Positions 40,316 through 59,215 of a stretch of DNA of 64,000 nt are shown one piece after another. Positions within the stretch are counted from its first letter, which is position 1; the number at the start of each line of letters is the position of its first letter. The translations under genes and the position numbers were made by a program. The notes below the pieces were generated by a model that saw nothing but the letters and a program-made list of their open reading frames with translations, made no database searches and was not told where the DNA came from. Source of the DNA: Bdellovibrionales bacterium (lineage in GTDB: Bacteria; Bdellovibrionota; Bdellovibrionia; Bdellovibrionales; JAUICD01); the NCBI GenBank assembly GCA_965203275.1, contig OZ241865.1:1440001-1504000 (forward strand), in the 5' to 3' direction.

Positions 40316-41069
40316 AAAAAAAGAACGAACTTCATATAATAACTCTCATGCACAGTTATCTATCAGTGACCTGATGTCTGGCTTGGTGTTTATTTTTATC
40401 ATTATTATTGTTATATTTGCCATACAATTAGATCAAACCAATAAACAAAAAATTCAAGCACTAAATGAACATAAAGAAACCAGTGATGCTCTTGAAGACA
40501 TATTAAAAAACATTCAAAAAAATTTTAAAGAAGAAGAAAATATACAAATAGAAGTGGATCTCGAAAATAAAATATTGCATTTACCGACAGATGTATTGTT
40601 TGAAAGTGGAAAATATACCCTTAATGAAGCAAAAGGTATTCCTATAGTTGAACGTCTGGGATGGCTTTTTAAAAAATATCTTGATTGTTCTGATCAAAAT
40701 CAAAATAAAAATCAAAATAAAATATGTGATGGCGATAAATTAAAATTAGAAACAATATTTATTGAAGGTCACTCTGATGATGTTCCACTAGGCTATAAAT
40801 TAAAACTGATTATAGGGTCAAATCTCAACCTTTCAGTTCAAAGAGCTATTCATACCAATAATGAGATGAAAGATCATATTCAATATCTTAAAAATTATCA
40901 AGGGGATTACTTATTCAGTGTTGTAGGTTATGGTGAAAAAAGACCTCTAACAAAAAAGCCAATTAATTTTAAGAACCTCCCTTTTAAAAAACAAGAAGAA
41001 TATCACAAAAAAAATAGAAGAATTGATTTAAGATTTTTAGTGGGTATCCCAAAAATATTAAGGAATTAA
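40305..41069 (+). CDS. zorB: Zorya ZorB (MotB/OmpA-like)
   Basis: SISDLMSGLVFIF, IEGHSD, NLSVQRA, NRRIDLRF. Confidence 0.9.
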   Translation: MLLKKKERTSYNNSHAQLSISDLMSGLVFIFIIIIVIFAIQLDQTNKQKIQALNEHKETSDALEDILKNIQKNFKEEENIQIEVDLENKILHLPTDVLFESGKYTLNEAKGIPIVERLGWLFKKYLDCSDQNQNKNQNKICDGDKLKLETIFIEGHSDDVPLGYKLKLIIGSNLNLSVQRAIHTNNEMKDHIQYLKNYQGDYLFSVVGYGEKRPLTKKPINFKNLPFKKQEEYHKKNRRIDLRFLVGIPKILRN

Positions 41070-41072
41070 GTT

Positions 41073-42494
41073 ATGCAAATATATCATCTACAAAAATTAG
41101 CTTATAAAAAAGCAAATGGGATAAACCTTTCAAAAGCTTTGGAAGAATTTAAACAGTTTGTAAAAGAGAAAATAAAAATATCTCAACAAGTCACAATAAA
41201 AGAGCCACTTCAAATGGAGAATATCTATTATGAAATTTCCAAGCACTGGGATCAAAATAAGAATTTAAAATTTTCTAAAAGGCGTCTTTATCGTAAAATA
41301 CCAATGCTCTTACCTTTTTCTTTTTCTTCCAAGCCTTCTCTTATTAAAAATAAAGAATTTTTAAAAGCTTATTTTAAAGATATACAATTAAATAATGATG
41401 ATCGCTCTGCAAGAAAGCTATTAAAAGCTATTTTAAGAAACTACGACTCATTTAATCAACTAGAAATAGAACAAATAATAACAGTTATAAAACCTATTAT
41501 CTCAAATGCCAAATCTAAAAAATGCCAGAGGCTTATTCAAATAGACTCTGATTATCATATTATTAGCAAAGAGATAGTTTCAAATATTGCAGAGAAAATG
41601 CTGAATAGCTCAAAATCTATTGAAGATATATTTTCAGATTTGTGTGAATGTATAAGTCCTGATCTTTGGGAAGGGAAATTAGGGGAAGCTATTGCGATGG
41701 AAATACTTAAAAAAAATCAAATAGAAATGCAAAATAATCACTTTAAATATTTAGAGCGTACCTTAAATTATTTTAAGAACAAAGAAGCCAATCAACTACG
41801 ATTAGAGCGTCTTAGCTCTGATCTGTTAGATTATTTATTAAGACCCTTTATAGAAAGGGATCCACAGCTAGATGTTAAAAATAAACTTTCTCAATTTATT
41901 GACACATATTTTGGTGACCCTCGTGTTGATCCTCGATGGGGAAACTTCATACTTAAGGATGAAATTAAACAAGTGGTCTTAAGATGGAAAACAGCCTTAA
42001 CCTTGAAGGCCTTCTTTAAATTACTAGATCATGTTGCTCAAACTGATCCCACCCATGATAGACATTGGGAAAGTAGAAGAAATTTTTGGAATGATTTCTT
42101 AGATAGACAAGAGATTCTTGAATCTTGGCTTATTTTAGGAAAAACACATATTAAAGTATTAAATAAATGGAGTAATAAAAAGGAAAAATTAGAATATGCT
42201 ACTTTTTTAAATAGCACAGGCATTCAAAATACTCACTCTGCCATTATAATGAAAATTAGAAACTTTATACTTGTAGAATGGTCTCATTCTGGAGCTTTAA
42301 GAATATACAAAGATACAGATAAAAGAAAACCAAAGCTTTATAAAAAAGAATATTATCCTAATGAAATAAAGAAAATAAAGCAACACACAGATGGTTGGAT
42401 TCAACATGATCAATATGAAAGATGGAAAGAAGAGGTAGAAGATATGCTCTTTGATAGAAGAAGAAAGAGAAAAATACTTAATACAAATTACTGA
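41073..42494 (+). CDS. zorC: Zorya ZorC (EH-signature protein)
   Basis: FGDPR...RRNFW...VEWSHSGALR. Confidence 0.85.
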   Translation: MQIYHLQKLAYKKANGINLSKALEEFKQFVKEKIKISQQVTIKEPLQMENIYYEISKHWDQNKNLKFSKRRLYRKIPMLLPFSFSSKPSLIKNKEFLKAYFKDIQLNNDDRSARKLLKAILRNYDSFNQLEIEQIITVIKPIISNAKSKKCQRLIQIDSDYHIISKEIVSNIAEKMLNSSKSIEDIFSDLCECISPDLWEGKLGEAIAMEILKKNQIEMQNNHFKYLERTLNYFKNKEANQLRLERLSSDLLDYLLRPFIERDPQLDVKNKLSQFIDTYFGDPRVDPRWGNFILKDEIKQVVLRWKTALTLKAFFKLLDHVAQTDPTHDRHWESRRNFWNDFLDRQEILESWLILGKTHIKVLNKWSNKKEKLEYATFLNSTGIQNTHSAIIMKIRNFILVEWSHSGALRIYKDTDKRKPKLYKKEYYPNEIKKIKQHTDGWIQHDQYERWKEEVEDMLFDRRRKRKILNTNY

Positions 42495-42534
42495 GATATG
42501 TTTTATGAAAAATTAAAAAACTAGAAGATAAACT

Positions 42535-45500
42535 ATGAAACTGATATTTAATATAGAAAAAAATGATGTTCATATCACAGCAAAAGATTCTTTAAATCAA
42601 CGAATTGCTGTAGAGCAATGGTCTACTCAAAATCCCAAGCTTGACTTCATCCATTTACTTCTTGAAGAAGCCAAAGCTTCACAAGATCAATACACATTGA
42701 TCATAGCAAAATCAAACATACCTGATCTCACATCTTATCAAATAGAACAGCTCTCTTTATATCCAGTCATTCCTTACACACTGCACTGTAAATCAACAGG
42801 TACTATTTTAAGAGACAACTATAAAATTATTGTCAATTTTAAAAGTTCTAGTGGTCTGCCACTTGGCAAGATAGAACGAAATGGTCCTTTTGCAAAAGTC
42901 GCAGGCAAAACCTACACTCTGATCAACCCTATTTATGAATCCTTACTGCTTATTGAACAAATCAACCAAAGCAAAGACAAAACAAAATTAATTCATCTTC
43001 AAAAACTTAAAGAAATACTACCTTTTCAATGTCTTAAAAATGATGAATCTTTGATAGAAACAGAAGTTTTTATTGCTAATAATTTTACTTTAAGAGTTAT
43101 TGATAGAGAAAATTTCTTATACACTCCTTGCTTTGTGGATGTAGACAAAGAAGCTGATGAAATGGTCTATTTATTAAATGACAAACAACAACAACAATAT
43201 TCAAAGCAGTTTTTAGATTATAATCAAGTCAAACTTCAAATGCAGATCCAAACTAATCAATTTATAGTTTTACCTCCTCGAACAAAACAGTTGATTGATG
43301 TAGTCAAATCGACCATTTCAAAAAGCTATCAAGAAAAAGCACGACTTTTTGCAAACCCTCATTCTTTTTTTAAAGAAGCTCTAGGAGAAAGTTATCTCAA
43401 TGAGCATGAAGATCTATTTGTTTTAGATCAAGCTTATGCTTCCGATAGGATTAGCCATATAGGAATATGGGAACCTAAAACTCAAGTATTTTTACCTCAA
43501 TATCAAAGTGAATGGTTTCCTCAATATTGTGTTGGCATTCCATTAGACAGAGGAATCATCTTTATGAAACCAGAAAATATAGAAAATAACTGTCAAAAAA
43601 TAGAGCAAGCTATCCGCAATAATATTCCTTTTGTTCAATGTGAAGGGCAAAAGATAAAGGCCACTCAAGAAAATCTTAAATTATTGAAAGAAACAGACGA
43701 AAGAATAAAAAAAGAAATAAAACCATCAGAATTGAATATAAAAGAAGAGAAAAAAGAAAAAAATCCTCCCATTGTAGCTATTATTAAAGACAATTTAGAT
43801 GAAAATGGAGTTTATAGTGCAAATAAAAATAAAAGGCAAATACAAGATGTGTTCTGTCCATCTTTATTAAACATTTCACTTTTTCCGCATCAAAAAGAAG
43901 GACTTTCATGGTTGCAAAATTCATGGAACAAATCTAAAAGAGGTGTTTTGCTAGCTGACGATATGGGGCTTGGTAAAACTTTGCAAATCTTAGCCTTTTT
44001 AGCATGGTTAAAGGAACTTGAACAAAATCAAAAAATAGATAAAAGACCTATTTTAATTATTGCATCTACAGGTCTGCTTAAAAATTGGGAAGACGAACAT
44101 AATAAACATCTAAAGGAGCCAGGCTTGGGTATACCAACAAAAGGATCTGATTTAAAACAACGTTTAATCCAAAAAGGGGAAGATTATATTGTGGATCGTT
44201 TTAAAAAATCTCATTGGGTATTAACGACTTATGATTCACTGGCAAGATACGAAAGTATTTTTGGGCATATTTCATGGCAAGTGATTGTTTTTGATGAGTG
44301 TCAGGCTATTAAAAATCCAAGTTCCTATCGTACAGATAGAGCTAAGATGATGGATGCTGATTTTTCAATTGGTTTAACTGGTACACCTGTTGAAAATAGA
44401 TTAAGTGACTTGTGGTGTATTTCTGACACGTTATATCCAGGCCTTCTTAAAACTTATAAAGAGTTTAAAAAAAGATATGAAGATAAACAAGATCATTTAA
44501 AAGAATTAACTCAAATAATGAAGGAAGGTCATCCTCCGTCCTTTATGCTTAGAAGAATGAAAAAAGATCATATCAAAGGTTTAACTCATAAGAAAGAGAT
44601 CATCAAAAAGGAATTGATGCCTCAAAAACAAACTTCAGGTTATGATGCTATTTTGCAAAAGGTACAATCTCAAAGATATAGAAAGTCTATGGTGGCTATT
44701 CAACATCTTAAGTCTATGAGCTTAGCTTCTAAGTTTGATGAAAACTTAGAAGATCAAGCATTTATAAACAGTTCAGCTAGGTTGATTGCTTTATTTAAAA
44801 TTTTAGATGAGATTGAATCAAGGAGAGAAAAAGTTTTAATATTTTTAGAATCTCGTCATTTGCAAGAAAAACTTATTCCAATTATAAAGAGAAAATACAA
44901 GCTAAATCACTCACCTCTTTTAATCAATGGTCAAGTGGCTGGACAACAAAGAAAACAAAAGGTAGATATTTTTCAAAATTTACCACTAGGATTTGATGTG
45001 ATGATTTTATCTCCTAAAGCTGGTGGAACAGGCTTAACACTCACAAGAGCTAATAATGTTATTCATTTAGAGCGGTGGTGGAATCCAGCAGTAGAAGATC
45101 AATGTTCAGATAGAGTTTATAGAATTGGTCAAAAAAAAGATGTTAATATTTATATTCCTATGGCTATTCATCCATCTATAAAGAGCTTTGATATGGTTTT
45201 ACATGAAAGGCTTAAGAAAAAAAGAGAGTTAAGTCAGAAGGTGATTGTTCCAACAAAACTTGATTCAGAGGATTATAAAGAAATTTTTGAAACAACGACA
45301 GGTGAAACTTTTGAAGATGATCAGGATCAGAAAGATAATTTCTACAAATCCCGAGCATGGCATGAATTGAGATATCGTATCTTTAATAAATATGGGCATA
45401 GATGTCAAAAATGTGGTGCTGATCAGAGTCAATCGACCCTGCATGTGGATCATATCAAACCAAGATCAAAGTATCCTCAATTGGAATTAGACCCTAACAA

Positions 45501-45570
45501 CCTTCAAGTTCTTTGTGAAGAATGTAACTTAGGAAAATCAAACAAACATGAAGATGACTACCGACCTTAG
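42535..45570 (+). CDS. zorD: Zorya ZorD: SNF2 helicase with C-terminal HNH nuclease
   Basis: LADDMGLGKT, DECQ, TGTPVEN, WWNPAVEDQ; C-terminal CQKC..HVDHIKP..NLQVLCEECNLGK. Confidence 0.85.
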   Translation: MKLIFNIEKNDVHITAKDSLNQRIAVEQWSTQNPKLDFIHLLLEEAKASQDQYTLIIAKSNIPDLTSYQIEQLSLYPVIPYTLHCKSTGTILRDNYKIIVNFKSSSGLPLGKIERNGPFAKVAGKTYTLINPIYESLLLIEQINQSKDKTKLIHLQKLKEILPFQCLKNDESLIETEVFIANNFTLRVIDRENFLYTPCFVDVDKEADEMVYLLNDKQQQQYSKQFLDYNQVKLQMQIQTNQFIVLPPRTKQLIDVVKSTISKSYQEKARLFANPHSFFKEALGESYLNEHEDLFVLDQAYASDRISHIGIWEPKTQVFLPQYQSEWFPQYCVGIPLDRGIIFMKPENIENNCQKIEQAIRNNIPFVQCEGQKIKATQENLKLLKETDERIKKEIKPSELNIKEEKKEKNPPIVAIIKDNLDENGVYSANKNKRQIQDVFCPSLLNISLFPHQKEGLSWLQNSWNKSKRGVLLADDMGLGKTLQILAFLAWLKELEQNQKIDKRPILIIASTGLLKNWEDEHNKHLKEPGLGIPTKGSDLKQRLIQKGEDYIVDRFKKSHWVLTTYDSLARYESIFGHISWQVIVFDECQAIKNPSSYRTDRAKMMDADFSIGLTGTPVENRLSDLWCISDTLYPGLLKTYKEFKKRYEDKQDHLKELTQIMKEGHPPSFMLRRMKKDHIKGLTHKKEIIKKELMPQKQTSGYDAILQKVQSQRYRKSMVAIQHLKSMSLASKFDENLEDQAFINSSARLIALFKILDEIESRREKVLIFLESRHLQEKLIPIIKRKYKLNHSPLLINGQVAGQQRKQKVDIFQNLPLGFDVMILSPKAGGTGLTLTRANNVIHLERWWNPAVEDQCSDRVYRIGQKKDVNIYIPMAIHPSIKSFDMVLHERLKKKRELSQKVIVPTKLDSEDYKEIFETTTGETFEDDQDQKDNFYKSRAWHELRYRIFNKYGHRCQKCGADQSQSTLHVDHIKPRSKYPQLELDPNNLQVLCEECNLGKSNKHEDDYRP

Positions 45571-45665: not shown

Positions 45666-45742
45666 GATAAGTTTCAATCTCACATCACACCAATCATACG
45701 TTCATACGTTGAAGCAAATTTAATTTGTTTAAACTATATTTT

Positions 45743-46118
45743 AAAAGTCAAAAGAGGTGGGCAAAAATAAATTTGATTTTTTTAAGAAAAGCAACAAACA
45801 TTTGAATTTTTTAGTGAAGAAGCCACCATCAACAATATAAGCTATTCTGTCCATTTCAAAAAGCCTTTAAAAACCTTATAAAACTGTAAGCTTTATAAAA
45901 AAATTGGCCTAAGTGTCCAACCCTAAAGTTTTTTATTAGGGAATAAGGAACAGAGACCCGTGTATTTTCATATCTTTACATATAATCTTCGCCTAAATAA
46001 TCTAAAAAGTCAAGAGGAATGAGCAAATAAATTTTTTAAAACAATAAAAAGCACCATCAACTCCATCTATTCATCCATCGTAGAAGCTTAAAACCCTCAA
46101 ATATCTTGACAAAATTGG
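45743..46118. repeat. ~380-bp inter-cassette repeat, copy 1
   Basis: Highly similar to 52185-52567 and 56777-57180; ends in TTGACA-N17-TATACT (46106-46134). Confidence 0.9.
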
Positions 46119-46451
46119 GATTTAGCATTATACTTCCAATCAAAATTTAATTATTAAACTTATTTTAAAGGAGGTGCAAAATACCAAAAAGATATGCAAT
46201 TACAACAGATTAAATGACAAATTATTTTAGATACATACAATGAAATTAAGAAAAATATGGCATTCGCTATATCATCTAAGTATGACTAGGAATGAGGATG
46301 TATTAGATGGATAAGCCATCAATTCCATTGACTCCATTCCCATCACAGAAAAATAAAAATATTTTATATTTGATGAAGATATGATTTATCTCAAAAGATG
46401 TTGCATATTGCTTAAAGTTATGATATAAGTAGCTTTCATGTAACAAAGGAG

Positions 46452-46997
46452 ATGCTTATGCTGAAAAAGTATTTAATTTATATTTTATTTCAAAGTAATA
46501 TTTTGATTTTACTTGCTCCCACTAGTAGTTATGGAGTTTTTAATTTTGTTTCAACAGGGATTGAAGAATTAAATGTCGATGGAACTGAGATTAAAATTAA
46601 CCAAAGTAGATCAGAGTATTGTATTCAAAAAGCTAGCGAAGGAAAATATGTGCTTTGTTTCCCTCATGCTGAAATGTATATCACACAAAGAGGTGAAACA
46701 AATGATATCACTCATATCCTTAAGGAATGGGATGGTTTTTTTGTTTTCTTTGTCAAAATAAGAACGAATCAATATGCTGTGGATTTGAATAGTGATGGAA
46801 AAAAAGAAATCGCTATTGTACCTCAAGTCTCTGGAGGAGGTGCTATTAGTTTGCCAGCTTATCTCTATACTATAACGGATCATGGCTTAGCACCTTATGG
46901 TGAAGGAAGATTTTTTTGGGAAAATGGCCAGAAGGTCTTACTTGGTTGCCCTCAATGTTCAAAGTTTAACTTAGGAGCTTGTAATTCTTGCTATTAA
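46452..46997 (+). CDS. Secreted hypothetical protein
   Basis: Signal-like N-terminus, DLNSDGKKE Ca-binding-like motif, C-terminal CxxC...CxxC. Confidence 0.6.
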   Translation: MLMLKKYLIYILFQSNILILLAPTSSYGVFNFVSTGIEELNVDGTEIKINQSRSEYCIQKASEGKYVLCFPHAEMYITQRGETNDITHILKEWDGFFVFFVKIRTNQYAVDLNSDGKKEIAIVPQVSGGGAISLPAYLYTITDHGLAPYGEGRFFWENGQKVLLGCPQCSKFNLGACNSCY

Positions 46998-47037
46998 AAA
47001 TTTGAGCTATTTTAAGCTATAAAAAATAAGTTTTCTT

Positions 47038-47349
47038 ATGACATTTGGTTATCTTGAAGTAGGTTTTGCACTGATCACAAGCTTGTGGTTTTATGCAGTG
47101 ATTTTCTGCAAATCCAATTACGAAGCTGAAAAACATAACGAGATCACAAATGCCAATAAGGCAAGAGCTTTAAAAACTTTTCGAGTTTTTGTAGATGGTA
47201 GCGATGCTCAGTCAATCAAAGATGCAATGCTTTTACTTGCAGGTCAGGCAGCGTTTTACACACCAACAAGTGGCTTTAGAAAAAATGAAAAAGAAATTCC
47301 GCTTCCACCTCTTGCCCAAACTGCAAAGCAATTTTACAAAGAAAAATAA
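47038..47349 (+). pseudogene. Probable C-terminal fragment of a membrane protein
   Basis: Starts in a TM-like segment; short and without a clear SD. Confidence 0.35.
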
Positions 47350-47518
47350 AGACTTACTTAAACCCCTGCTTTGATAATCTTTTTTAGACTTGTCAGAAGC
47401 TTATCAAATGCTTTTCAGAATACAAAATATATTTTCAACTGAAAAAATCAATTATTTAAGATAACATATCACTGAACATATATAATATAACATCCAAAGA
47501 AAATCCTTAAAAACAAAT

Positions 47519-48148
47519 TTAAAATAACTCTAATTGTTGTGTATAATCTAAATGATTTTTAAAAGGCTTTTCTCTTTTTTTCAAAATAATTTCTTCTCCT
47601 ATTGATTGATCTATAAGTTGCCTTAAATCAACCACTGCACCAAATTTTAAAAATGTACTAAAGAATTTTTCATATTTTTTACCCCAATAGACCATTGCAC
47701 AAGACATTGGAGCTCCTTTCCCTTCTTTATCTCCATCTTCTAAAAATTTTAACCGGGTTTCATATAAAAAACACACTGCAATAGCTTTGCCCCATATATA
47801 TTCTTTCCAATGACTTGTATTGCTTGCTACTGGAATTAATGCTAACACTTCTGAATGAAATTGTTTATTTGCATTTGCACACTTACATAACCAATTTTTT
47901 ATTGTTGTCCCTCTGTGTCTATCTGCTCCGTAAGGGGGATTGACATATATTGTTTTATAATCCCAATGGGCATTTAATCCATCATTTTCAGGTAAAGAAA
48001 GTTCTATTTTTGCATTGACTTTTGACCATTGGTTGGAACAAGGATCAAACTCTATGACCCCTTCAAATACTTGCTTAACTGCTTTAATATACTTAAGCGG
48101 AGTACACCAATCAGTGCTTTGAGAATTAACTGTGCGACCTGCTGTCAT
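47519..48148 (-). CDS. DNA N6-adenine methyltransferase (phage Dam-like)
   Basis: DWCTP...FDPC...YVNPPYG; its start overlaps (ATGA) the stop of a start-less upstream gene remnant at 48145-48290. Confidence 0.8.
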   Translation of the reverse strand: MTAGRTVNSQSTDWCTPLKYIKAVKQVFEGVIEFDPCSNQWSKVNAKIELSLPENDGLNAHWDYKTIYVNPPYGADRHRGTTIKNWLCKCANANKQFHSEVLALIPVASNTSHWKEYIWGKAIAVCFLYETRLKFLEDGDKEGKGAPMSCAMVYWGKKYEKFFSTFLKFGAVVDLRQLIDQSIGEEIILKKREKPFKNHLDYTQQLELF

Positions 48149-48420
48149 TTAAGTATCCTCTCCCATTTTTTAGATGAAAGAAAAGCCAAATCTTTTTTTA
48201 AATTTTTAATATCCTGATGAGCGGGTGCTATGACAGTAAACCATTTTTCAATTTCTAATAAATTTTCTTTAAATTTGTAAATTTTTTCATATTTTTTAAT
48301 CCTTGTTTAATATCTAAATGGGACTCATGTATAGTAAGAGAAGTGTTTGTTATCAGCAAATTGCATTAAAATAGATTGTACTGTCAAGAAATACTAAAAA
48401 ATATCTTTAAAAGAGATTTT

Positions 48421-49186
48421 TTAGTAAAAGTGGTCTGACCTCTGTTTCCCTAAAATTGAACTAGCCGTCATTTTCACTCAAAATGCATCATGCCGTCTTT
48501 TGCACTTGAAATGAACCACACCTCTGTTTCCCTAAAATTGAACTAGCCTCTGGCTACTTTTGGGCAGTTAGCCCGACGACTGTCGTCGTCGATCAAAGGC
48601 TAACTCCCTCAAAAGCTTGTTCAATTTTAGGAAGAAGGATGTCCTCATTTCTTAACAGCATGTTAAGGAAAAAGAGTTTCATTTGTAAACCTGCTTGCTC
48701 TTAAGGCAATAAAAGAACTTTTTCCCTAACATGGTGTAAAGGAGTAAAAAGATCCTCCCCTACTCAAAATGCATAGATTTTTGAGGCAATGACTATTTTG
48801 TCAACGTGAAGTAAACATCTTGTTTCCTTAACATCGTGTAAAGAGACAAGAGGATTCTTCTTACTAAAAATAAACGGATTTTTGAGGCATTGCTCTTTTT
48901 GGACAGCGTAAGCTGTCAGAGCAATGCCCAAAAACAGCCAGAGGCTGGTTTATTTTTAGTGAAACAAACGCGGTCATTGCCCAAGGTGTAAGAAGGAACT
49001 TTTTCCTTAACATGTGGTCAAGAGACGAAGAGATTCTTCTTCCTAAAATTGAACAAGCTTTTGAGGCGGTTAGCCTTTGATCGACGGCGGTAGCCGTCGG
49101 GCTAACTGCCCAAAAGTAGCCAGAGGCTAGTTCAATTTTAGGGAAACAGAGGCATGATGCATTTTGAGTGAAATATTAAGGAAAAA
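48421..49186. repeat. Nested cluster of palindromic elements
   Basis: Reverse-oriented nest 48421-48680 and forward nest 48720-49172 (outer CAAAATGCAT/ATGCATTTTG with two inner units). Confidence 0.9.
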
Positions 49187-49269
49187 GATTACTTAGATAC
49201 AATTGCAAAAGAAAGTTTTAATCAGAAAGGAATCTTTAGTGTTCTTATAATATTGCTTGTTCAAAAAAA

Positions 49270-49932
49270 TTATTTTTTCATTTTTTGTTTTCTAGCCTCT
49301 AAGATTCTTAAATGCTGTTTTTTCTCTTCGTCTCCATCTCTACAGCATTTTTTATATTTCTTCCTGCTTCCACAAGGACATTTTTCATTTTTTCCTATTT
49401 TCTTAAGTGAAGTTATATATTTTTTGCTATCTTCTATAGCTTCCTCTATACCTTTTTTGCCATGAGAATATTCCCCGCATGGTGGTATTTTCCTATACTT
49501 TTCATAATAAGCTTGCCATACAAAATATGGGTAAACTCTGTAAATAATAAAATCTTTGAGAGATGCGGTTCTTTTAAGGGGAATCAATTCTAAACAACAA
49601 CTCTTGTCATTAGGATAGAGGTGTAAATCTTGAACTTTTTTGTTTAATTTTTTTGCCAGTCTTTCAATTTTTTCACCGATCTCATATACTTTTGGCCATC
49701 CTAGTGGATGATTATTAAAGTCAATTTCTATGAGATACTCACCTGTAACACATTCATTTTCATTTGTTTCACAAGGCTTTATCTCCCACTGATCTATGGA
49801 ATTTTCTTTTTTCACATAGTGACAGGGATGAATAATAATATGACCGGTAATTTTATTATCATTCTGACAATATTTAAGATCAGGAAACCATTTAAGAGTT
49901 TCTTTAAAATCATTACTTGAATATTCTATCAT
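49270..49932 (-). CDS. E2/UBC-like protein with C-terminal SEC-C motif (CBASS ancillary)
   Basis: YLIEIDF..WPKVYE..LHLYPNDKSCCL; GKNEKCPCGSRKKYKKCC; start inferred at MIEYS. Confidence 0.7.
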   Translation of the reverse strand: MIEYSSNDFKETLKWFPDLKYCQNDNKITGHIIIHPCHYVKKENSIDQWEIKPCETNENECVTGEYLIEIDFNNHPLGWPKVYEIGEKIERLAKKLNKKVQDLHLYPNDKSCCLELIPLKRTASLKDFIIYRVYPYFVWQAYYEKYRKIPPCGEYSHGKKGIEEAIEDSKKYITSLKKIGKNEKCPCGSRKKYKKCCRDGDEEKKQHLRILEARKQKMKK

Positions 49933-50902
49933 CAAACGCATAAGGTTTAGTTGCTGGTACTGTAGGAAGAATAGCACTTTCTTTACGAGAAGACGAAGAA
50001 TCTATCAATCGACCAAAATGATCACCGAATAATTCACGCCATTTTTTGACGCTACTATTGTAATCTTCTTCTTCAAAAGCTTGATTAATTTTTCCATTAT
50101 ACGAATTAAACTTTTCTCTAAAATTCTTATATTTTACTTCATCCCAATGCCTGTTGAAATCCTCACTTGACATCACTGGATTTTTAATAATTGGCATAGA
50201 TGGACGGTTTTGCAAAAAATTATTTAGTCTATTTGAGAGGGTTTTCAAAGTTGTTGGTAAATCTGAAAAGCTTTCACTGTCTTTATCATCAGTTTGCACC
50301 ATATTACCTAAAAGAGTGGTCAACAGTATTGACTTAACAGAAAAGTTATCTTTATGATCTCTCAAAAATTTTAAAAGTCTAGTCACCTTTCTAAAATTAT
50401 TATTACCAACAATTTCATTTTTTTGTGCTAGCCATTGTTTATATCCATCACCATCTGTTGGCTCATATTTGCTATCGTTTCTATTAGTGATATAATGTAC
50501 TTCATTATGTTCTACACAAGGGACAATATCTAAGTGAAAATCACCAGCATAATTAATTGTCACACATCTTGTCTTTTTATTGATCTTATCTTCGTAATTG
50601 CCATTATTTTTGAATATCTCATAAATTTTTCTTACATAGTCAGTTTTAAAATCATTTGGATTAAAATCAGAATCCTGAATAAATATCAATAGATCAGCAT
50701 CAAACTCGTCATTATCTTTTACAGGTTTAATAATAGTTTTATGGGCATAAGAACCTTGCTCACTAAACTTTCTGTAACCTGACAAATTTTCTTTAAGTAA
50801 TTTCGTGATTGTTTCTATGCGTCCTTTTAATGTATCTAACCGGTCTTGATTAAGATCTACACGCTTAGACAAAAAATCTTTAAAATCTCTTTCGTGCTTC
50901 AT
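49913..50902 (-). CDS. CBASS CD-NTase (cGAS/DncV-like nucleotidyltransferase)
   Basis: QGSYAHKTIIKP..EFDADL..RCVTINY..FHLDIVP. Confidence 0.9.
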   Translation of the reverse strand: MKHERDFKDFLSKRVDLNQDRLDTLKGRIETITKLLKENLSGYRKFSEQGSYAHKTIIKPVKDNDEFDADLLIFIQDSDFNPNDFKTDYVRKIYEIFKNNGNYEDKINKKTRCVTINYAGDFHLDIVPCVEHNEVHYITNRNDSKYEPTDGDGYKQWLAQKNEIVGNNNFRKVTRLLKFLRDHKDNFSVKSILLTTLLGNMVQTDDKDSESFSDLPTTLKTLSNRLNNFLQNRPSMPIIKNPVMSSEDFNRHWDEVKYKNFREKFNSYNGKINQAFEEEDYNSSVKKWRELFGDHFGRLIDSSSSRKESAILPTVPATKPYAFDDRIFK

Positions 50903-51823
50903 TTATACCTCCTTAAGAAAATTCTTAATTTTTGCACTTTGGTTTGTAAACTCTTGCTTTGCTTTTTCTTTGAAATTAGCTATTTCTCTATAATTGTCAA
51001 GACTACAATATTCGATATTTGGATTAATTCTCAAAATATTGTCTTTATTATCCTTAAAAATCAAATTTAAGACATTTTCTGGAAACTTTGTCTGACAAGA
51101 CATAACAAAATCTACAAATTTAGTTTTTTCCCATCCATATAATAGTCCCCAATTTTTTGATTTTTGATAACATTGTTCTGATTTTCCAGTTCCTATAGAT
51201 AATATTTTGACATTATTTGTCTTTGCTTTAAAATTATTAATAGCATCTGTATAACCCACAAGAGCGGGATTATTTGCCCATATACCTCCATCACAAATAA
51301 GAGTTCCATTTATATTTACTGGGTCAAAATAAGTTGGTGTTGCACAAGAAGCTAAAACAGCTTTAAATAAAGGTATTTCGCCATCTCTCACATAGCCAGC
51401 GTTTCCTCTTTGCTTCTGCTGGTAAGCCGACTTAAAAACATGGACGTCTCCCATACTGACATTTGTAGCATTAAGAATAAGAGGTTTTTTAATTTCTCCT
51501 AGCTTTTTCTCTTTGAATTTCTGGTGAAGAAATATCTCTAAGTGATGATTATTATATTTTGATCTAAAAAGTCCACATAAATTCCATTGTTTTTGAAAAA
51601 TCTCAGGAGCCTTTTCTGAGTAATCATCAACTAATTGAGCTAAATCACTGTCTATTGCCACTGTTCCAGCTACAATGCTCCCTGTGCTTGTACCGACAAT
51701 AAGATCAAAAGTATCATGTATTTTTATATTTAGCTTTGCTTCTATAAGAGCTAATATCTTAGTAGCAAATATTCCCTTTATCCCACCTCCATCAATACTT
51801 AAAATTTTAAACATTTTATTCAT
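50903..51823 (-). CDS. capV: Patatin-like phospholipase CBASS effector
   Basis: DGGGIKG, GTSTG, DGGIWANNP; directly upstream of the CD-NTase. Confidence 0.85.
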   Translation of the reverse strand: MNKMFKILSIDGGGIKGIFATKILALIEAKLNIKIHDTFDLIVGTSTGSIVAGTVAIDSDLAQLVDDYSEKAPEIFQKQWNLCGLFRSKYNNHHLEIFLHQKFKEKKLGEIKKPLILNATNVSMGDVHVFKSAYQQKQRGNAGYVRDGEIPLFKAVLASCATPTYFDPVNINGTLICDGGIWANNPALVGYTDAINNFKAKTNNVKILSIGTGKSEQCYQKSKNWGLLYGWEKTKFVDFVMSCQTKFPENVLNLIFKDNKDNILRINPNIEYCSLDNYREIANFKEKAKQEFTNQSAKIKNFLKEV

Positions 51824-51900
51824 TTATATACCCTTCTTGCAATGATCATGTCTAAGTAATTTCAATGGATTATATTATTTCCACCTATTGTAAACAGTCT

Positions 51901-52122
51901 TTATCCTAGATTATTACTCCTTCTTCCATCAGGATTAGATACAGGAGTTTTTATTCCATTAATCTTTCTTATATGGTAACTAGGATACTTTTCACGCTCT
52001 ATTCCTCTGACAAATTGAGGTCTAGTCATCTTTTTGTGTGTTTTTTTATCAATAAAAAGCACATTTCGACCTGTCTCTGACTTTTTATCAACTTCGATTG
52101 CTTTTCTATTATTTTTTACCAT
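51901..52122 (-). CDS. Small basic protein, DUF3892-like
   Basis: C-terminal SNPDGRRSNNLG; SD AAGGGG; leads the CBASS operon. Confidence 0.55.
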   Translation of the reverse strand: MVKNNRKAIEVDKKSETGRNVLFIDKKTHKKMTRPQFVRGIEREKYPSYHIRKINGIKTPVSNPDGRRSNNLG

Positions 52123-52184
52123 TATTTACCCCCTTATATTATTAGTAATAACAAACATACCCTTTCACTTTAGAGCTTTATAAA

Positions 52185-52567
52185 AAAGTGTGTTCGATAG
52201 AAAAAAAGTCAAGGAGGTGGGCAAAAATAAATTTGATTTTTTTAAGAAAGGCAACAAACATTTGAATTTTTTAGTGAAGAAGCCACCATCAACAATATAA
52301 GCTATTCTGTCCATTTCAAAAAGCCTCTAAGAAACCTCTAAGCTTTATAAAAAAATGGGCCTAAGTGTCCAACCCTAAAGTTTATTAGGGAATAAGGAAC
52401 AGAGACCCGTGTATTTTCATATCTTTATATATAATCTTCGCCTAAATGATCTAAAAAGTCAAGAGGAATAGGCAAATAAATTTTTTAAAACAATAAAAGG
52501 CACCATTAACTCCATCTACTCCCCTATCGTAGAAGCTTAAAAACCTCAAATACCTTGACAAAATTGG
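52185..52567. repeat. ~380-bp inter-cassette repeat, copy 2
   Basis: Similar to copies 1 and 3. Confidence 0.9.
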
Positions 52568-52639
52568 AACTATTCAATCAAATAAGAAACAGTTTTGTAA
52601 TTATACGTACATGAAAATATAACTAAAAAAGGAAAAAAT

Positions 52640-53311
52640 ATGATTACTTCTAAATATATTCAAAATACCTTTCTCATTAAACATGATAATAAATGCGGAT
52701 CTTGTTTTAAAGTTATTAAAACAAAAAAATATTCATATCTAATCACAGCAAAACATGTTATCTCAAAATTAAAAGATAATGATATTATAAAAATATATTT
52801 TAATAATCCTCATGGCTGGTATGATATAAAAGCCATTAAAATTCTTCATTGCGATGATACTGATATATCTATTTTTGTTTTTGATGATTCAAAAAAAACA
52901 TCAGTAACTTTTCAATTACCTATGAGTTCTAATCATTTAATTTGTGGTCAAGATATTTTTATTTTAGGATTCCCTCTTGAAATAACTCAAGATACAAGAA
53001 TACAAGATCAAGAATCTTCAACTCCCCTTCCTTTAATAAAGAAAGGAGCTTTATCAGGTATAACGCCCGTTGACAAGAAAACTATTTTTTATGTGGATAT
53101 ACATATTAATCAAGGATTTTCTGGAGGCCCCGCTTTATTTAAAAATCAATTTGATAATGAAATAAAAATTTTTGGCGTTGTTTCAAGCTACATCTGTGAT
53201 CAAATTAAAGGGAAAAACGTTTTAGCCAATAGTGGCATTGGCCTTGTTGAATGTATCTCTTCTGCCTCTAAAATTATTGAGCAGGCTAGGAAAGAACTAC
53301 AAGATACATAA
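52640..53311 (+). CDS. Trypsin-like serine protease, no signal peptide
   Basis: LITAKHV, DISI, NQGFSGGP catalytic triad motifs. Confidence 0.85.
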   Translation: MITSKYIQNTFLIKHDNKCGSCFKVIKTKKYSYLITAKHVISKLKDNDIIKIYFNNPHGWYDIKAIKILHCDDTDISIFVFDDSKKTSVTFQLPMSSNHLICGQDIFILGFPLEITQDTRIQDQESSTPLPLIKKGALSGITPVDKKTIFYVDIHINQGFSGGPALFKNQFDNEIKIFGVVSSYICDQIKGKNVLANSGIGLVECISSASKIIEQARKELQDT

Positions 53312-53349
53312 AGTCTCATTTAAAAGTTTAAGTAATAAATAAAAATACT

Positions 53350-54722
53350 ATGAAAAAGAAACAAAAATTAAATATCTTAAAAAGAGATAATTATAAATGT
53401 GGTATTCATTTAGGTGGTTGTGGTAAAAAACTTTCTCTTGATTCGATGACCATTGATCATATTGTTCCAAAAAATATATTGAAAGGATGCAAGGAGTATA
53501 AAAAACAATTTAAAAAGTACAAATTTATAGATAATGAGTTCTTTAATCTGCAACCTATGTGTTTAGAATGTAAAAGCAAAAAACAAGGCAATTTTCCTCC
53601 AAATAACATAGTAAAAAATGTTCTAATAAATGTTGCAATTTTATTTATCTTAAATATGAAAAAAAGAGTAAATATTATTTAGTCTTTATTCATTATCTGT
53701 TAAAAGATGCTGAAAATCTTCATTATTCAAACGAACCATCAGCAATGAACTGTGTAGCTTTTATATTTAATTTCATACAAATTCAATTCAAATATGCAGA
53801 TGGAAGTAAGTCACCACAAATATATATGTTAAGAGGTGAAAGTAAGAATTATGTAGGTTTTCAAAAGAATAAAGTGGGAGGTTTAGTTTCTGAAGTAGAT
53901 ATGATCAGAAACAACCAACAATATGGCCAAAAAGAAATATCCGAAGCTATAAAACATCTAAATATTCAGCTTAAAAGAATTGACAAACCAAGGTTGCTCC
54001 TAATTTCTGAAATAAGCCAGTGGCATATAAGAATAGCAGTGGAAGGAAATATTTCTGAGTATTCAAAAGCAATTAAAGAAAGTAAAAATAGTATTGAAAA
54101 ATACTATAGTGAATGCCACTCTTTTTATGGAGTTACTGTTTTATGTGAATTTCAAGGCAAAAAAATCATAGAACAACATCCTCTATCTGCTCAATATCTT
54201 TCTTTTGGAACTCAATTTCCAAATAAACCTCAATTGAAAGGTCAATCAACTCATGCATTAGTGTCAATAGATAAACTGAAAAAAGAGAATATAACAGATT
54301 ATTTATTGAAATCATATATCATATTTATATATCAATTATGGGAAACACGCTTTCGCTCTGAAATAGCAAATCATTTTGGTATTGAAAACACAAATGTAAG
54401 GTGTGATTTTTTTGGTGATTTAAGGGTGATAAGAAATAGTTTGATACATGAAAGTGCATCAATGTTAAGGAAAGATGTAGAAAATTTTAAAGTCCTCAAG
54501 TTTGGATTAAATAAAAATCTTACAAAAGGAATTTTAATCACGTCCCCTGCAATACTTGGACATATTATGGAACAACTCAACTTAATGCAAATAGATATAG
54601 CATTGAAAGATAAGTATATTACTTTCAAAATGTGTCCTGTTGTCGCTGATTCTATAATAAAAGGGCAACTACATTATCAGACAGAAACCAGACATAATCT
54701 AAATATAACCCCATTATTATAG
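53350..54722 (+). pseudogene. HNH + HEPN-like protein split by a one-base frameshift (ORFs 53350..53682 and 53745..54722)
   Basis: RDNYKC..TIDHIVPK..NLQPMCLEC; the -1 frame from the A6 run at 53613-53618 is open into the 53745 ORF, which has RNSLIH. Confidence 0.65.
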
Positions 54723-54843
54723 ATCAATTTTAGTTAGAGCTACTCATAAAAGAGGAACTCCTGTATGCGATTTTGAATTATCTGCAAATTCAGTAAATTG
54801 ACAAGAGTATTTAATAAATTCTTTTAATTCATCAATGTTTATT

Positions 54844-55269
54844 TTATCTATATTTGATAATTTTAGAAAGTAATGATTTTATTTTTGCAAAAAATCTAAC
54901 AGGCTTCTTTTCTTTTTCAATATTTAATTGTTTTTCTTGTATTTGATAATATTTCTCTTTTTTGAGTAAGTCTTTCCTTCTTCCTTCTAAAATTTCTTTT
55001 TTAGACCATCTTCTACTCCAAATAATATTACTATTTTTTATCCAATAGTGAGATTTACAATTAAAGCTCCAGTTTCCTATAGAAGGATCAAGTGAAATAG
55101 TATATCCATTATAGATAATTTTCCAATCTGTAGGACTTATAGGCGTGACGACTTCTTCACCACATCCACAAAAACAATTATGAGAAGCTGTATTATATTT
55201 TATAGAAATATAGATAATATTATCTTCTAAGACATTTGGAATATTTGTAACAAATTTATGTTTGATCAT
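54844..55269 (-). CDS. DUF6527-like protein (Bub-operon peptidase)
   Basis: HNCFCGCGEEVVTP..W..SLDPSIGNW..CKSHYWI. Confidence 0.8.
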   Translation of the reverse strand: MIKHKFVTNIPNVLEDNIIYISIKYNTASHNCFCGCGEEVVTPISPTDWKIIYNGYTISLDPSIGNWSFNCKSHYWIKNSNIIWSRRWSKKEILEGRRKDLLKKEKYYQIQEKQLNIEKEKKPVRFFAKIKSLLSKIIKYR

Positions 55270-56464
55270 CTACTTTGTCCTCATTTATTAAAGAATTGCA
55301 CTCTATTTGATATAAAGTAGTATACTCTTTACTACAATCAAAATAAAATTCGTTTATTTTTTTCCACTTTATTACAGCTAGGGAAGCATTAAGAGCATTA
55401 AGTTCAGCAACTTGAATATTTGTTGAATATGGATCATTATTGCCATCAGAATATGAAACTCTATTATCAAGATGATTTTTCTTATCTTTTGTGCATAGAG
55501 TAGTTCTTACATTACCAAGTATTTTTTGATCTTGATTACAAAGTCCCATTCCTACATCAATAAATGGTATCTCTTTATTGATGAGAAAATTGAATAATTC
55601 TTTTTTAACACATCCTTGATCTATACAGATGAAAACAAAGCTTTTTTCTGATAATTTATTAAACTTAGATGATTTAATATTATATGGATAAGAGATGATA
55701 TTTTTGTGCATTTTCGAATAAACTTCCTTTAAATAATTCGTTTTTTTGACTTTTTCATTTAAATTTTCCTTTGAAGCTACTCCAGGAGTTCTAAAGGCAT
55801 TATGATTTAAAAAAATATCACCATCAAATAAACTGATTTCTCTGACAGGTGTTTTTGCAACAAAATCTAAGATATAAGCTCCAGTTCCTCCCAAACCTAT
55901 AATGGCAATTTTTTGATCTTTTAACTTCATAGATATATTATTAATATTAGATTTACTTGAATTGGTATCTTTATACTGAAATACAGAATTATCCATATCT
56001 TTATCTTTAGATATAGATTGTCTAGAAGTTGCTGTCACAGAAGAGTCTATTGATTGAGCTGGATGAGAAATAATACGAACATAATTAGTTATTTTTTCAT
56101 AATAATCTTTATATCCCTCATTTGGCTTATTTGAAAATGAATATTGAATATCATAACCAGCAATATTTTCATTTTTTGATTCATTTCGAATTGACTCTAT
56201 AGGGTTCCCTTGATTATCACAAGGATACTCCCCTGTAAAGAAAATAACGTGGGTTTCTGGCTTAACTGTTTTATCTCCGGCTAGTGTTAAAGCTGATATA
56301 AGCTCACCGTATTTAATTTCTTTTTTGGAATTGATATATGGAATCTTATGAACAATTAGATAAGAATCCTTTATTTCAAGCTTATAACCATCTTCTTTAA
56401 GTTTTTTTAAATCAGAGCTATGATTTATCAGTTTTTGTGACACTAAACACCATCCCATCTTCAA
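55256..56464 (-). CDS. E2-like + ThiF/E1 adenylyltransferase fusion (Bub-like)
   Basis: IAIIGLGGTGAY, FDGD...HNAFR, NIQVAELNALNA; N-terminal FSNKP..Y.DYYEK domain. Confidence 0.8.
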   Translation of the reverse strand: MKMGWCLVSQKLINHSSDLKKLKEDGYKLEIKDSYLIVHKIPYINSKKEIKYGELISALTLAGDKTVKPETHVIFFTGEYPCDNQGNPIESIRNESKNENIAGYDIQYSFSNKPNEGYKDYYEKITNYVRIISHPAQSIDSSVTATSRQSISKDKDMDNSVFQYKDTNSSKSNINNISMKLKDQKIAIIGLGGTGAYILDFVAKTPVREISLFDGDIFLNHNAFRTPGVASKENLNEKVKKTNYLKEVYSKMHKNIISYPYNIKSSKFNKLSEKSFVFICIDQGCVKKELFNFLINKEIPFIDVGMGLCNQDQKILGNVRTTLCTKDKKNHLDNRVSYSDGNNDPYSTNIQVAELNALNASLAVIKWKKINEFYFDCSKEYTTLYQIECNSLINEDKVDDQT

Positions 56465-56711
56465 TATTTACTTCTTTGCCAGCTACAAGACTACCTTTTC
56501 TATCTGTTTGGATATGTGTATAGGTCACTGTATAAGCAATATCCGGATTATTAAAATCTGTATTGTCAAAAGCTAACTTTACAACATCTTCAAAGGTTAG
56601 CGTTCTTTTTGGAGGGACTTTATCCCTACCATTAACAATGATTTTCATTTTATTTTCTTGTTTTTCCTGATGATCAGGATTGCTTTTACCATTTTTTTCA
56701 ATATTTGACAT
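56418..56711 (-). CDS. Multi-ubiquitin-family ubiquitin-like protein
   Basis: IIVNGR..LTFEDVV.LAF..YTVTY..GSL..G..V..GM.F.V..TDKS. Confidence 0.8.
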   Translation of the reverse strand: MSNIEKNGKSNPDHQEKQENKMKIIVNGRDKVPPKRTLTFEDVVKLAFDNTDFNNPDIAYTVTYTHIQTDRKGSLVAGKEVNIEDGMVFSVTKTDKS

Positions 56712-56776
56712 AAGAAACCTCCTATCAAATTAAGTTAAATTTAATGCTTTAAAGACAAATAAACCCTAATACTTAT

Positions 56777-57180
56777 AAAGTGTGTTCGATAGAAAAAAAG
56801 TCAAGGAGGTGGGCAAAAATAAATTTGATTTTTTAAAGAAAAGCAACAAACATTTGACTTTTTAAAAGGCAAGAAATAGCTACCATCAACAATATAAGCT
56901 ATTCTGTCCATTTCAAAAAGCCTCTGAAAACCTTATAAACCTTAAAAACCTATAAGCTTTATAAAAAAATGGGCCTAAGTGTCCAACCCTAAAGTTTTTT
57001 ATTAGGGAATAAGGAACAGAGACCCGTGTATTTTCATATCTTTATATAATCTTCGCCTAAATAATCTAAAAAGTCAAGAGGAATGAGCAAATAAATTTTT
57101 TAAAACAATAAAAGGCACCATTAACTCCATCTACTCCTCCATCGTAGAAGCTTAAAACCCTCAAGTACCTTGACAAAATT
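56777..57180. repeat. ~400-bp inter-cassette repeat, copy 3
   Basis: Similar to copies 1 and 2; a partial fourth copy lies at ~58306-58347. Confidence 0.9.
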
Positions 57181-57252
57181 TGGTCTATGTGATCAAATAG
57201 CAAGCATTCTTTCAACTATGCAAATGCAACAAAAACAATAGAGACTCTAAAA

Positions 57253-57608
57253 ATGAAAGAAAAGAAACGAGTAAAAACGGTGGTAATGGGAACACCAACA
57301 ATAAGAGCATTGTTAATAATGGCCAGCTCTTTACAAGAAGTCTCTGATTTGCTACTAAGAACATCAGAAACATTTGACAGTCAAACTTGACTGCTGATTC
57401 TCAATTAAAATCTATGGATATAATGTGGGGAACAAGTATTCTTTTACCTTTTATTTGTGAGTTAGGCTTAACATCATTATATTTATTAGACAATCAAGGA
57501 ACTCAAATGATTCCTAAAAAACATTCCTTATTGTATTGGTGGAATAGGTTAAAAAAAGATACTAAAGATAAAATAACACAACAATTTGAAAATGGTTTTA
57601 TAATATGA
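57253..57608 (+). pseudogene. Frameshifted and truncated HEPN-like gene
   Basis: ATG at 57253 is open to ~57390, then shifts into ICELGL..KHSLLYWW. Confidence 0.4.
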
Positions 57609-57654
57609 TTTTAAATAATTGACTCAGATACTATTTATTGATATTTTTTATAAA

Positions 57655-57930
57655 ATGAAATGGCAGGTTAAAATTTCAAATAAAATGGTAAAGCGAATGA
57701 TTAAGCTTCCAAAATTAGTTAAGGAGAATCTTACTAAGCTCATAGTGGAAATGGAAATTTTAGGACCTGTAAGAGGCAATTGGAAAAATTATGGTAAGCT
57801 AGGAAGAAACAAACATCATTGTCATATCAAAACAGGCAAGCCCACTTATGTTATGTGTTGGAAAGTATTCAAAGAAAGAAAAATAATTTAGGTTTATTAT
57901 GTCGGAAGCCATGAAAAAGCACCCTACTAA
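57655..57930 (+). pseudogene. RelE/HigB-like toxin with a premature TAG at 57889
   Basis: GPVRGNWKNYGKL..HHCHIK; frame continues VYYVGSHEKAPY* after the TAG. Confidence 0.7.
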
Positions 57931-58276
57931 AGACGAAAGAGTGTCTATTTGGATTGGAAATAAAAAGGCTAAATTATATCTTATTCCAAAGAAAAAGGCA
58001 AAAGCCTTGTCTGATATGTTAGAAGAATATAAAAGTGAAGAAAGTATTCCCTGGAGAGATGCTTTGACTGATTTGATCAGTGAAACCAGTCAACAAGCTA
58101 TCGTTTTGAGAGATTCAAGACGTGAAAAAAATCTATCTCAAAAAAAGTTGGCAAAAATTTTAAAGGTTGATCCTTCTTTTATCACTCAAATTGAAAAAGG
58201 TGAAAAAAAGATCAACAAGCCCCTTGCGAAAAAGTTAGCAGAAGTTTTTAATACAGATTATAGAATTTTCCTATAA
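57899..58276 (+). CDS. XRE-family HTH antitoxin (HigA-like)
   Basis: LSQKKLAKILKVDPSFITQIEKGEKKI; follows the toxin. Confidence 0.85.
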   Translation: MSEAMKKHPTKDERVSIWIGNKKAKLYLIPKKKAKALSDMLEEYKSEESIPWRDALTDLISETSQQAIVLRDSRREKNLSQKKLAKILKVDPSFITQIEKGEKKINKPLAKKLAEVFNTDYRIFL

Positions 58277-58348
58277 CCTTATAAGAAGTCAAATATCTTA
58301 TACCTTAAAAAATAAACACAACCATCACCTCCATCTACTCCCCCTACT

Positions 58349-58684: not shown

Positions 58685-59215
58685 TTAAAGACCCCTGCTA
58701 TTTTTATCTAATTCTTCGGATTCTATCTTTTTATAATAAGCTTTAATATGATCATTTGGGATCTCTATGAAAGAATGATTTTGTCTATCAAAATACTCTG
58801 ACCATGGAGTTCCATTTTTATGTGTCAAGTCTGATAAACGTGAACTTGTATAATTTTTGTACTCTTTATAAACCTCATCCATTATCTTTATTTGAATTGG
58901 ATTAAATTTTTTCTTAAGATTTTCACTATCTATTTTTTCTATCTGAGCTATAGGAATAATTCTTCCATTTTTAAAAGTCATATCTCTAAACAAAAAAAAT
59001 ATTTCTGGAATGACAGGACCATACCACCACGCTTCAAAATTCTTATTAGATAATGGCTCACCTGTTCTAGCTAGGTGAATACCATGAGCAATATAAATAA
59101 ATTTAAGCAAGTGAGTTAAATAGAGAATAGTTCGAGCTTCATCTGTTTGATTAAGGTAAATAAAATATTTTGCAATGTTTAAAGGATTAACTCCTTCTGC
59201 TTTCATATCTTTCAT
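58685..59215 (-). CDS. Panacea-domain (DUF4065) antitoxin, second paralog
   Basis: IAKYFI..LKFIYIAHG..FEAWWYGPV..LSDLTH.NGTPW. Confidence 0.85.
   Translation of the reverse strand: MKDMKAEGVNPLNIAKYFIYLNQTDEARTILYLTHLLKFIYIAHGIHLARTGEPLSNKNFEAWWYGPVIPEIFFLFRDMTFKNGRIIPIAQIEKIDSENLKKKFNPIQIKIMDEVYKEYKNYTSSRLSDLTHKNGTPWSEYFDRQNHSFIEIPNDHIKAYYKKIESEELDKNSRGL

Follow-up and report, generated by a model that had tools for sequence, protein, structure and literature searches.

Remnants of an NYN gene and an hsdM-hsdS gene at the joints of unrelated defence operons in a Bdellovibrionales genome

The ways in which chromosomal defence islands acquire and exchange genes in the absence of an integrase are poorly understood. 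A stretch of 64,000 nucleotides from a Bdellovibrionales bacterium (assembly GCA_965203275.1, contig OZ241865.1, positions 1,440,001 to 1,504,000; the window hereafter) raises the question in a concrete form: what is the repeat of about 400 bp that stands three times at the joints of its defence operons, and how did different cargo come to lie between the copies? A first-pass annotation had taken this repeat for a reusable bidirectional promoter and recombination platform for swapping defence cassettes. The analyses presented here revealed that, as judged by alignment, the repeat unites, back-to-back, the start of an NYN/LabA gene and the end of an hsdM-hsdS gene, both of which are otherwise lost. 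Coordinates refer to the window unless marked as genome (2.57 Mb), and those of the features are collected in Table 1.

Pairwise BLAST among the three copies showed 88.2-91.8% identity over 376-425 nucleotides (E about 1e-153), and ungapped alignment gave 93.3-94.2%, which bears out the three direct copies described in the first-pass annotation. The partial copy that it placed at about 58306 was located as well; it is 80-84% identical to the three copies and 97-100% identical to pieces of a second island (island 2) at genome 2.185-2.192 Mb. The proposed search of the genome and of related genomes was carried out. An nhmmer profile of the three copies found these as the only full copies in the genome, all within 12 kb, and sub-pieces elsewhere at the place just named. 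Among 60 genomes of relatives searched with copy 3, none contained the composite repeat; one genome of the same genus (G001) gave a good match and two others matched over 28-38 nucleotides only. The differences between copies are clustered in patches, and the patch of copy 3 matches island 2. The kilobases of DNA between the copies are unrelated, and homology ends at nearly identical points in all three. In the alignment, inspected by eye, about 7 bp are complementary between the repeat ends and no flanking target-site duplication is visible. A miniature inverted-repeat transposable element or insertion sequence with outward -35 boxes was rejected because terminal inverted repeats, target duplication and dispersed copies with constant ends are lacking and the sub-modules separate in island 2. 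A dif/Xer site, weighed by eye, was set aside because its spacer would be too short compared to the consensus.

The left two-thirds of the repeat correspond to the first of the two genes. The G001 match lies upstream of an intact NYN/LabA-DUF88 gene, and the minus strand of each copy can be aligned end to end with this locus, beginning at the -35 box, continuing across a leader hairpin and stopping at codon 18; past this codon the NYN frame enters a second promoter module and then reaches a stop. A search with the G001 protein found no intact gene of this NYN clade in the genome, where the lone NYN gene above the Pfam cut-off lies elsewhere and is unmatched by the G001 protein. In the genome collection, the same query retrieved G001 itself only.

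Folding analyses showed that the G001 leader hairpin has a z-score of -3.8 against shuffles (for the window copies, see Table 1), while the plus strand of copy 1 folds no better than its shuffles. The hairpin also precedes six intact close-clade NYN genes in two families. In an alignment of nine rows (the six intact genes and the three window copies), 94.4% of the cells were paired, as compared to 28-55% in slid controls, and two-sided changes were present in 5 of the 16 pairs, the rows being kin and the structure being derived from the same rows. The window hairpin is thereby predicted to be the covarying cis leader hairpin type of NYN/LabA-DUF88 genes, located between promoter and start codon. 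No Rfam match to it was obtained in 45500-60300 at E up to 1, and a metagenome scan for the hairpin core returned 0 matches.

The right part of the repeat encodes the C-terminus of a fused hsdM-hsdS product (gene hsdMS) and matches longer remnants in island 2, the longest of which passes the Pfam Methylase_S cut-off. The closest full-length relatives (P0121-P0123) are fused N6-methyltransferase/S proteins of 679-851 amino acids, 73-78% identical to the remnant, whose C-termini agree with the remnants to the same residues and then diverge from each other. The body of the gene is absent from this genome, which has only tail remnants of a P0121-type gene. A profile built from the seven located tails recovered precisely these seven at E <1e-6, with no further match below E 2. 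Four are in the window and three in island 2, and within each island they are co-oriented. The tails are about 12-60 codons long and each is followed by different DNA, with the first ~30 nucleotides past the stop being common to tail A and copies 1-3 before they differ. A plasmid search with P0121 returned distant matches only, mostly from E. coli. In the longest remnant (genome 2189700-2189960), the distal conserved region directly follows the end of the first recognition domain, and a genome-wide repeat cuts the remnant on its 5' side.

The promoter-like boxes of the repeat were found as first described. Every copy extends rightward to a point immediately past TTGACAAAATT; at 17 nucleotides stands TATACT in copy 1 and TCAAAT in copies 2 and 3. 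Each copy carries two leftward TTGACT boxes in duplicated context, the leftmost without a -10. The rightward promoter scores as consensus in copy 1 only, because TCAAAT lacks the -11 A. A consensus -10 accompanies one of the nine -35 boxes among the matches listed by the promoter scan, and promoter-like sites in the region are no more numerous than in shuffles (84 versus 76.8, standard deviation 9.3). With one consensus promoter and a repeat made of remnants of two lost genes, a dedicated bidirectional promoter platform is not supported.

Island 2 (genome 2168000-2194000) contains, besides its three hsdMS tails, type III-like and type II restriction-modification (RM) genes, AAA-ATPase/DUF3226, TIR-8xMP and toxin-antitoxin pairs. 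Many short segments are common to it and the window island, among them a helix-turn-helix (HTH) antitoxin gene that is 98% identical. There the NYN promoter module faces the TIR and 8xMP pair, with the 3' half of the hairpin gone, and the right flank of copy 1 leads into a small gene of which island 2 has an intact version and the window a broken one. Since the NYN module and this right flank recur apart in island 2, the repeat is a mosaic of separately travelling modules. The two islands together present gene remnants, seven co-oriented tails, and the same modules beside different cargo.

Duplication of the hsdMS end was also investigated in other genomes. The examination of 38 loci yielded 27 non-redundant ones with a full hsdMS frame; five loci of a first viral set and three of a second were left out as having no full frame by a motif/length rule, and the rest were redundant. 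The downstream DNA available per locus ranged from none to 20 kb. The last 60 nucleotides of hsdMS were duplicated within the locus in 3 of the 27, compared to 8 of 402 other gene ends (Fisher p 0.026). In G666, where hsdMS is intact, 55 bp of the gene end recur without a mismatch 1.9 kb downstream, with cargo between. The NYN leader of the same genome is likewise present twice, the second copy (L229:2733-2798) lying downstream at a distance of ~1.3 kb; this may be a further case of a duplicated NYN head. On the viral contig L189, a 44-bp direct repeat (3739-3782 and 6207-6250) brackets the whole fused hsdMS, start codon included.

Variation among strains was followed in five public sequencing runs, as contigs from the matches listed, which were placed on the window in two comparisons (X1, X2, X6 and X7; X1, X4, X6 and X7). 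X7 is a sponge-metagenome run whose pieces are ~94-98% identical to the window and were placed at an 85% likeness threshold. In X7 the tail-like sequence ahead of the TTGACA box and the downstream toxin-antitoxin block is not the one found here, and the DNA behind a further tail also differs from that in this genome. When the flank patterns of X7 were searched in this genome with 3 mismatches allowed, one had no match and the other had one 3-mismatch match far from both islands. Contig cover in X1 and X2 is near zero over the Zorya region at 42.5-45 kb (about 20-60 elsewhere), which may reflect strain variation, and in X7 CBASS (cyclic oligonucleotide-based antiphage signalling system), copy 1 and the protease-HNH block are barely covered or not at all; neither gap is spanned by a joining contig and neither was counted as evidence. 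Joints skipping about 4.6 kb (52284-56882 and 52643-57249) were rejected, since the collapse of repeats or foreign contigs of low depth would produce the same picture. Over the 40 kb adjoining nuoL, G001 shows no synteny with this genome and gave no empty or alternative allele.

These data are best accounted for by ordinary homologous recombination at shared sequence, which probably added the cassettes and left the repeats as scars likely serving as RecA-type anchors (probability roughly 0.6). The crossovers themselves, the succession in which they took place and a role for the remnant promoters are our inference, as follows. Cargo would accumulate behind the hsdMS 3' end, each incoming piece carrying the conserved last codons and displacing the older tail and cargo downstream, a step modelled on the proposal for rhs genes. 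An orphan tail would then land back-to-back with an NYN gene, and a new promoter-plus-cargo piece would cut the latter after codon 18. The composite of ~400 bp, as the longest homology in the island, would become the crossover anchor, and one crossover, either with a circle or with a sister allele out of register, would produce the order repeat-cargo-repeat. Borrowing of the remnant promoters by the flanking operons would be a by-product. The genome has RecA and a ComEC-family gene, and a site-specific recombinase would be unnecessary.

A simpler history would be that one segment underwent old tandem duplications followed by differing internal deletions and insertions, with the repeats passive and never used as anchors. 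Local duplication is indeed frequent in this genome, as indicated by 30 low-copy direct-repeat pairs of at least 300 bp within 15 kb (out of 97 local pairs), 3 of which are these copies. The HTH antitoxin is duplicated too, as are the flanks of the Dam-like gene (47500-48414, again at 59324-59636 with 98% and 84% identity and the gene body missing in the second copy). Several observations weigh against recombination at the shared sequence. A larger duplication, comprising the Dam flanks and an adjoining hairpin-repeat cluster, also starts at tails 1 and 4, so that plain duplication and deletion explains part of the layout. The stretch 52493-56806 is letter-identical in X1 and X2 (two studies, one perhaps the source sample), including cargo B (52640-56711) with both joints, and X7, a ~95% identical strain, keeps the left joint of copy 3 with the Bub operon. 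The run contigs showed neither circles nor any deletion or exchange between copies; they are short-read, break at the repeat and cannot display a deletion between 400-bp repeats. The differing X7 joints are single contigs of depth 4-6 at 85% likeness, for which an origin from a congener is possible, and the enrichment of tail duplication is weak, p rising from 0.026 to 0.13 without L189, whose layout is different. Whether the flanks are fixed across strains, as the first-pass annotation had asked, receives a divided answer: the joints conserved in X1, X2 and partly X7 are shared, and the other, low-depth X7 tail joints differ. Duplication with deletions alone is nevertheless considered unlikely, as it does not readily account for kilobases of unrelated DNA between copies whose homology ends at nearly the same points, for X7 tails adjoining DNA absent from this genome, or for the recurrence of tail duplication in unrelated genomes.

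Selection for the repeat as a unit was considered in two forms. In one, the scraps of the two genes would have been domesticated into a recombinase-free two-sided exchange unit, with RecA circles, instant expression from the remnant promoters and a hairpin attenuating CBASS and Bub, which we regard as quite improbable. The other, close to the first-pass annotation and slightly more doubtful still, takes the repeat as a selected two-way promoter and recombination platform whose NYN hairpin now attenuates CBASS and Bub. Outward-reading, differing cargo does stand at five of the six flanks, the hairpin fold is kept in copies 2 and 3 despite loss of the gene, and the NYN module is reused before TIR-8xMP; yet copy 1 has no leftward cargo (zorD converges on it and ends at 45570) and its outer hairpin pair is broken, the single consensus promoter among nine boxes and the absence of the composite from the 60 relatives do not suit a platform, and at 93% identity the hairpin columns are no test of selection. 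The copies do lie at cassette joints and their modules do occur with other cargo in island 2; excision or swapping between the copies was not observed. Finally, the locus could be a decayed, recombinase-driven hsdS shuffling locus of the tvr type, its tails being silent specificity halves and its recombinase lost or acting in trans. This would suit the remnant joining the end of P0121's first target-recognition domain to the distal conserved region, which shows recombination between hsdS conserved regions, and the toxin-antitoxin genes between tails, a layout shared with tvr in the accessible text of PMC6265443. We hold it to be highly improbable, since the two tyrosine recombinases of the genome (PF00589) are at 312 kb and 2048 kb, outside the window, none of its 8 resolvase matches falls in the window, the variable tail length (about 12-60 codons) defines no fixed left crossover point, and the NYN half is left unexplained.

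The comparison with known systems places homologous recombination at the gene remnants among established mechanisms. An integron is a cassette array with repeated separators and an outside promoter. The window island likewise presents an array of defence cassettes with repeated separators and a promoter from outside the cargo, but its repeats are gene remnants and its blocks are convergent, multi-gene operons; of the earlier description as integron-like without intI, the lack of an IntI-like gene in the island (PF00589 search) is confirmed, while the likeness does not extend to the repeats and blocks. Closer is the C-terminal displacement of rhs genes (Jackson et al., 2009; PMC2935791), for which the accessible text describes strings of co-oriented 3' fragments that vary in length and in the DNA behind them, and proposes homologous recombination with circles and no dedicated recombinase. 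Such co-oriented variable fragments are present here; the intact parent at the head of the array is gone in this genome and present in G666, the anchor is an hsdM-hsdS tail plus an NYN head, and the passengers are whole defence operons.

A further precedent is the insertion of RM genes with long target duplication, including repeats of 390-420 bp in H. pylori (Furuta et al., 2010; PMC2853133). In both cases defence genes lie between long direct repeats (there up to about 420 bp and 93-99% identical) without another mobile element or mobile-element gene; according to the accessible text, an empty-site genome defines the insertion there, whereas none was found here, the repeat is threefold, and the cargo is CBASS, Bub and toxin-antitoxin genes, not RM. 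The tvr locus (SpnIV; Kwun et al., 2018; PMC6265443) is alike in its hsdS direct repeats with toxin-antitoxin genes between them, and excises and reintegrates via circles; it differs, in the parts of that article at hand, in having the recombinase TvrR and an intact RM system and in shuffling specificity domains, none of which applies here. Replacement near hsdS is attributed to lateral transduction, not tail duplication, in the portion of PMC12829572 consulted. In the literature covered, mostly open-access articles without their supplements, no report was found of orphan hsdS tails between defence cassettes or of NYN leader hairpins. The mechanism has precedent in rhs displacement and long target duplications; what is new is that the composite is two-sided and that neither parent gene has survived. 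The locus represents a concrete route by which conserved gene ends and heads outlive their genes at the joints of unrelated defence operons, and such scars could help to locate cassette boundaries and new defence genes.

Covarying hairpins of 55-70 nucleotides with a U-run were also noted before many NYN/LabA-DUF88 genes, in various phyla as well as in prophages. By sequence they fall into at least three classes, and one class matches Rfam TEG147. TEG147 (RF03535) is described as a Staphylococcus small RNA in the accessible parts of PMC7779021 and PMC5826253. The more distant NYN genes carry a leader class different from that of the window, and 1 of 20 tested loci reaches the TEG147 cut-off. 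A TEG147-like model, R2, built from 23 hand-picked rows, matched directly upstream of an NYN gene in 25 of 100 other loci at E <0.01 (counted by eye; at least two are near-identical to training rows) and missed all three window copies and the five closest intact leaders. By analogy with abiF/RCd22, NYN-leader hairpins across phyla are a candidate autoregulatory attenuator or RNA antitoxin. The abiF/RCd22 leader RNA, in the accessible text of PMC12373285, and TEG147 share with them a hairpin with U-run between the promoter and the start of a predicted RNase gene; the window hairpin differs as a separate, clade-specific leader that matches no Rfam or TEG147-like model and has lost its own gene here.

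Table 1. Features of the repeat and of the surrounding island (window coordinates; bp, base pairs; aa, amino acids)
Feature	Position	Strand	Basis or remark
Repeat copy 1	45743..46119	+	without 19 nucleotides present at the left end of copies 2 and 3
Repeat copy 2	52185..52584	+	alignment, nhmmer
Repeat copy 3	56777..57199	+	alignment, nhmmer
NYN/LabA-DUF88 gene, first 18 codons, copy 1	45801..45854	-	80% aa identity over 20 residues to the intact G001 gene
NYN head, copy 2	starts at 52314		equivalent of copy 1
NYN head, copy 3	starts at 56911		frameshifted after about 10 codons
NYN leader hairpin and U-run, copy 1	45898..45965	-	one outer pair broken; folding z -1.8
NYN leader hairpin and U-run, copy 2	52349..52414	-	folding z -3.2
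NYN leader hairpin and U-run, copy 3	56963..57031	-	folding z -3.0
hsdM-hsdS tail (last ~16 codons and stop), copy 1	46037..46091	+	translation, remnant matches
hsdM-hsdS tail, copy 2	about 52486-52540		equivalent of copy 1
hsdM-hsdS tail, copy 3	about 57101-57155		equivalent of copy 1
Fourth, bare hsdM-hsdS tail (about 12 codons)	58305..58344	+	no NYN part and no -35 box after it
Rightward promoter TTGACA-17-TATACT, copy 1	46106..46134	+	11/12 consensus; promoter scan
Rightward TTGACA, copies 2 and 3	52555; 57170		paired with TCAAAT
Inner leftward -35 box TTGACT, copy 1	46008..46013	-	aligned to the -35 of the intact G001 NYN gene; GAAGAT at 17 nucleotides
Inner leftward -35 box, copies 2 and 3	52457-52462; 57072-57077		equivalents of copy 1
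Outer leftward -35 box, copy 1	45746..45751	-	diverged second promoter module, no recognisable -10
Outer leftward -35 box, copies 2 and 3	52207-52212; 56799-56804		equivalents of copy 1
Zorya type I zorABCD, ZorD with C-terminal HNH	38168..45570	+	ends just left of copy 1 and converges on it
Two genes (181 and 103 aa)	46452..47349	+	right of copy 1; no family match
Dam-like adenine methyltransferase	47519..48148	-	domain search
73-aa gene, then CBASS: patatin effector, CD-NTase, E2-like/SEC-C	49270..52122	-	left of copy 2; no Pfam match for the 73-aa gene
Trypsin-like protease, HNH protein, 325-aa protein	52640..54722	+	right of copy 2
Type II Bub gene set: multi-ubiquitin, DUF6791-ThiF (E2-E1), DUF6527	54844..56711	-	left of copy 3
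Frameshifted remnant, small gene, HTH antitoxin	57254..58276	+	right of copy 3; antitoxin 98% identical to the island 2 copy
SocA/Panacea antitoxin gene	58685..59215	-	converges on the fourth tail

The cargo blocks between the copies are convergent and multi-gene. Domain searches agreed with the first-pass annotation on CBASS to the left and protease-HNH to the right of copy 2, and on the Bub operon and HTH antitoxin beside copy 3. The HEPN assigned to the right of copy 3 did not hold, as that remnant is frameshifted and without a Pfam match; its likeness to HEPN is one of motif only. The adjacent small gene, which has no family match, we take to be RelE-like from its layout and resemblance. 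Immediately right of copy 1, on the side where the first-pass annotation had listed a secreted protein, lies the broken head of the small gene that is intact in island 2, ahead of the 181-aa gene. The Bub set agrees with the type II definition (accessible text of PMC11601596) by its Pfam domains, namely Ubl, an E2-E1 fusion and DUF6527, with no JAB peptidase. A HEPN link of the 325-aa protein is a weak lead only (Atlas match 0.80, 22% family share), and the name DUF3892 for the 73-aa gene, which is unsupported by Pfam, was dropped. The product of the third CBASS gene (49270-49977) is E2-like, ends in a SEC-C motif and has no E1 or JAB partner. A 404-aa open reading frame (32991-34205), with a transposase-like C-terminus as judged by eye, shares a stretch with a 244-aa gene behind tail B of island 2. 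Hairpin repeats of very high copy number genome-wide bound or interrupt the island at 37550-37830, 45570-45644, 48400-49200 and 60160-61220.

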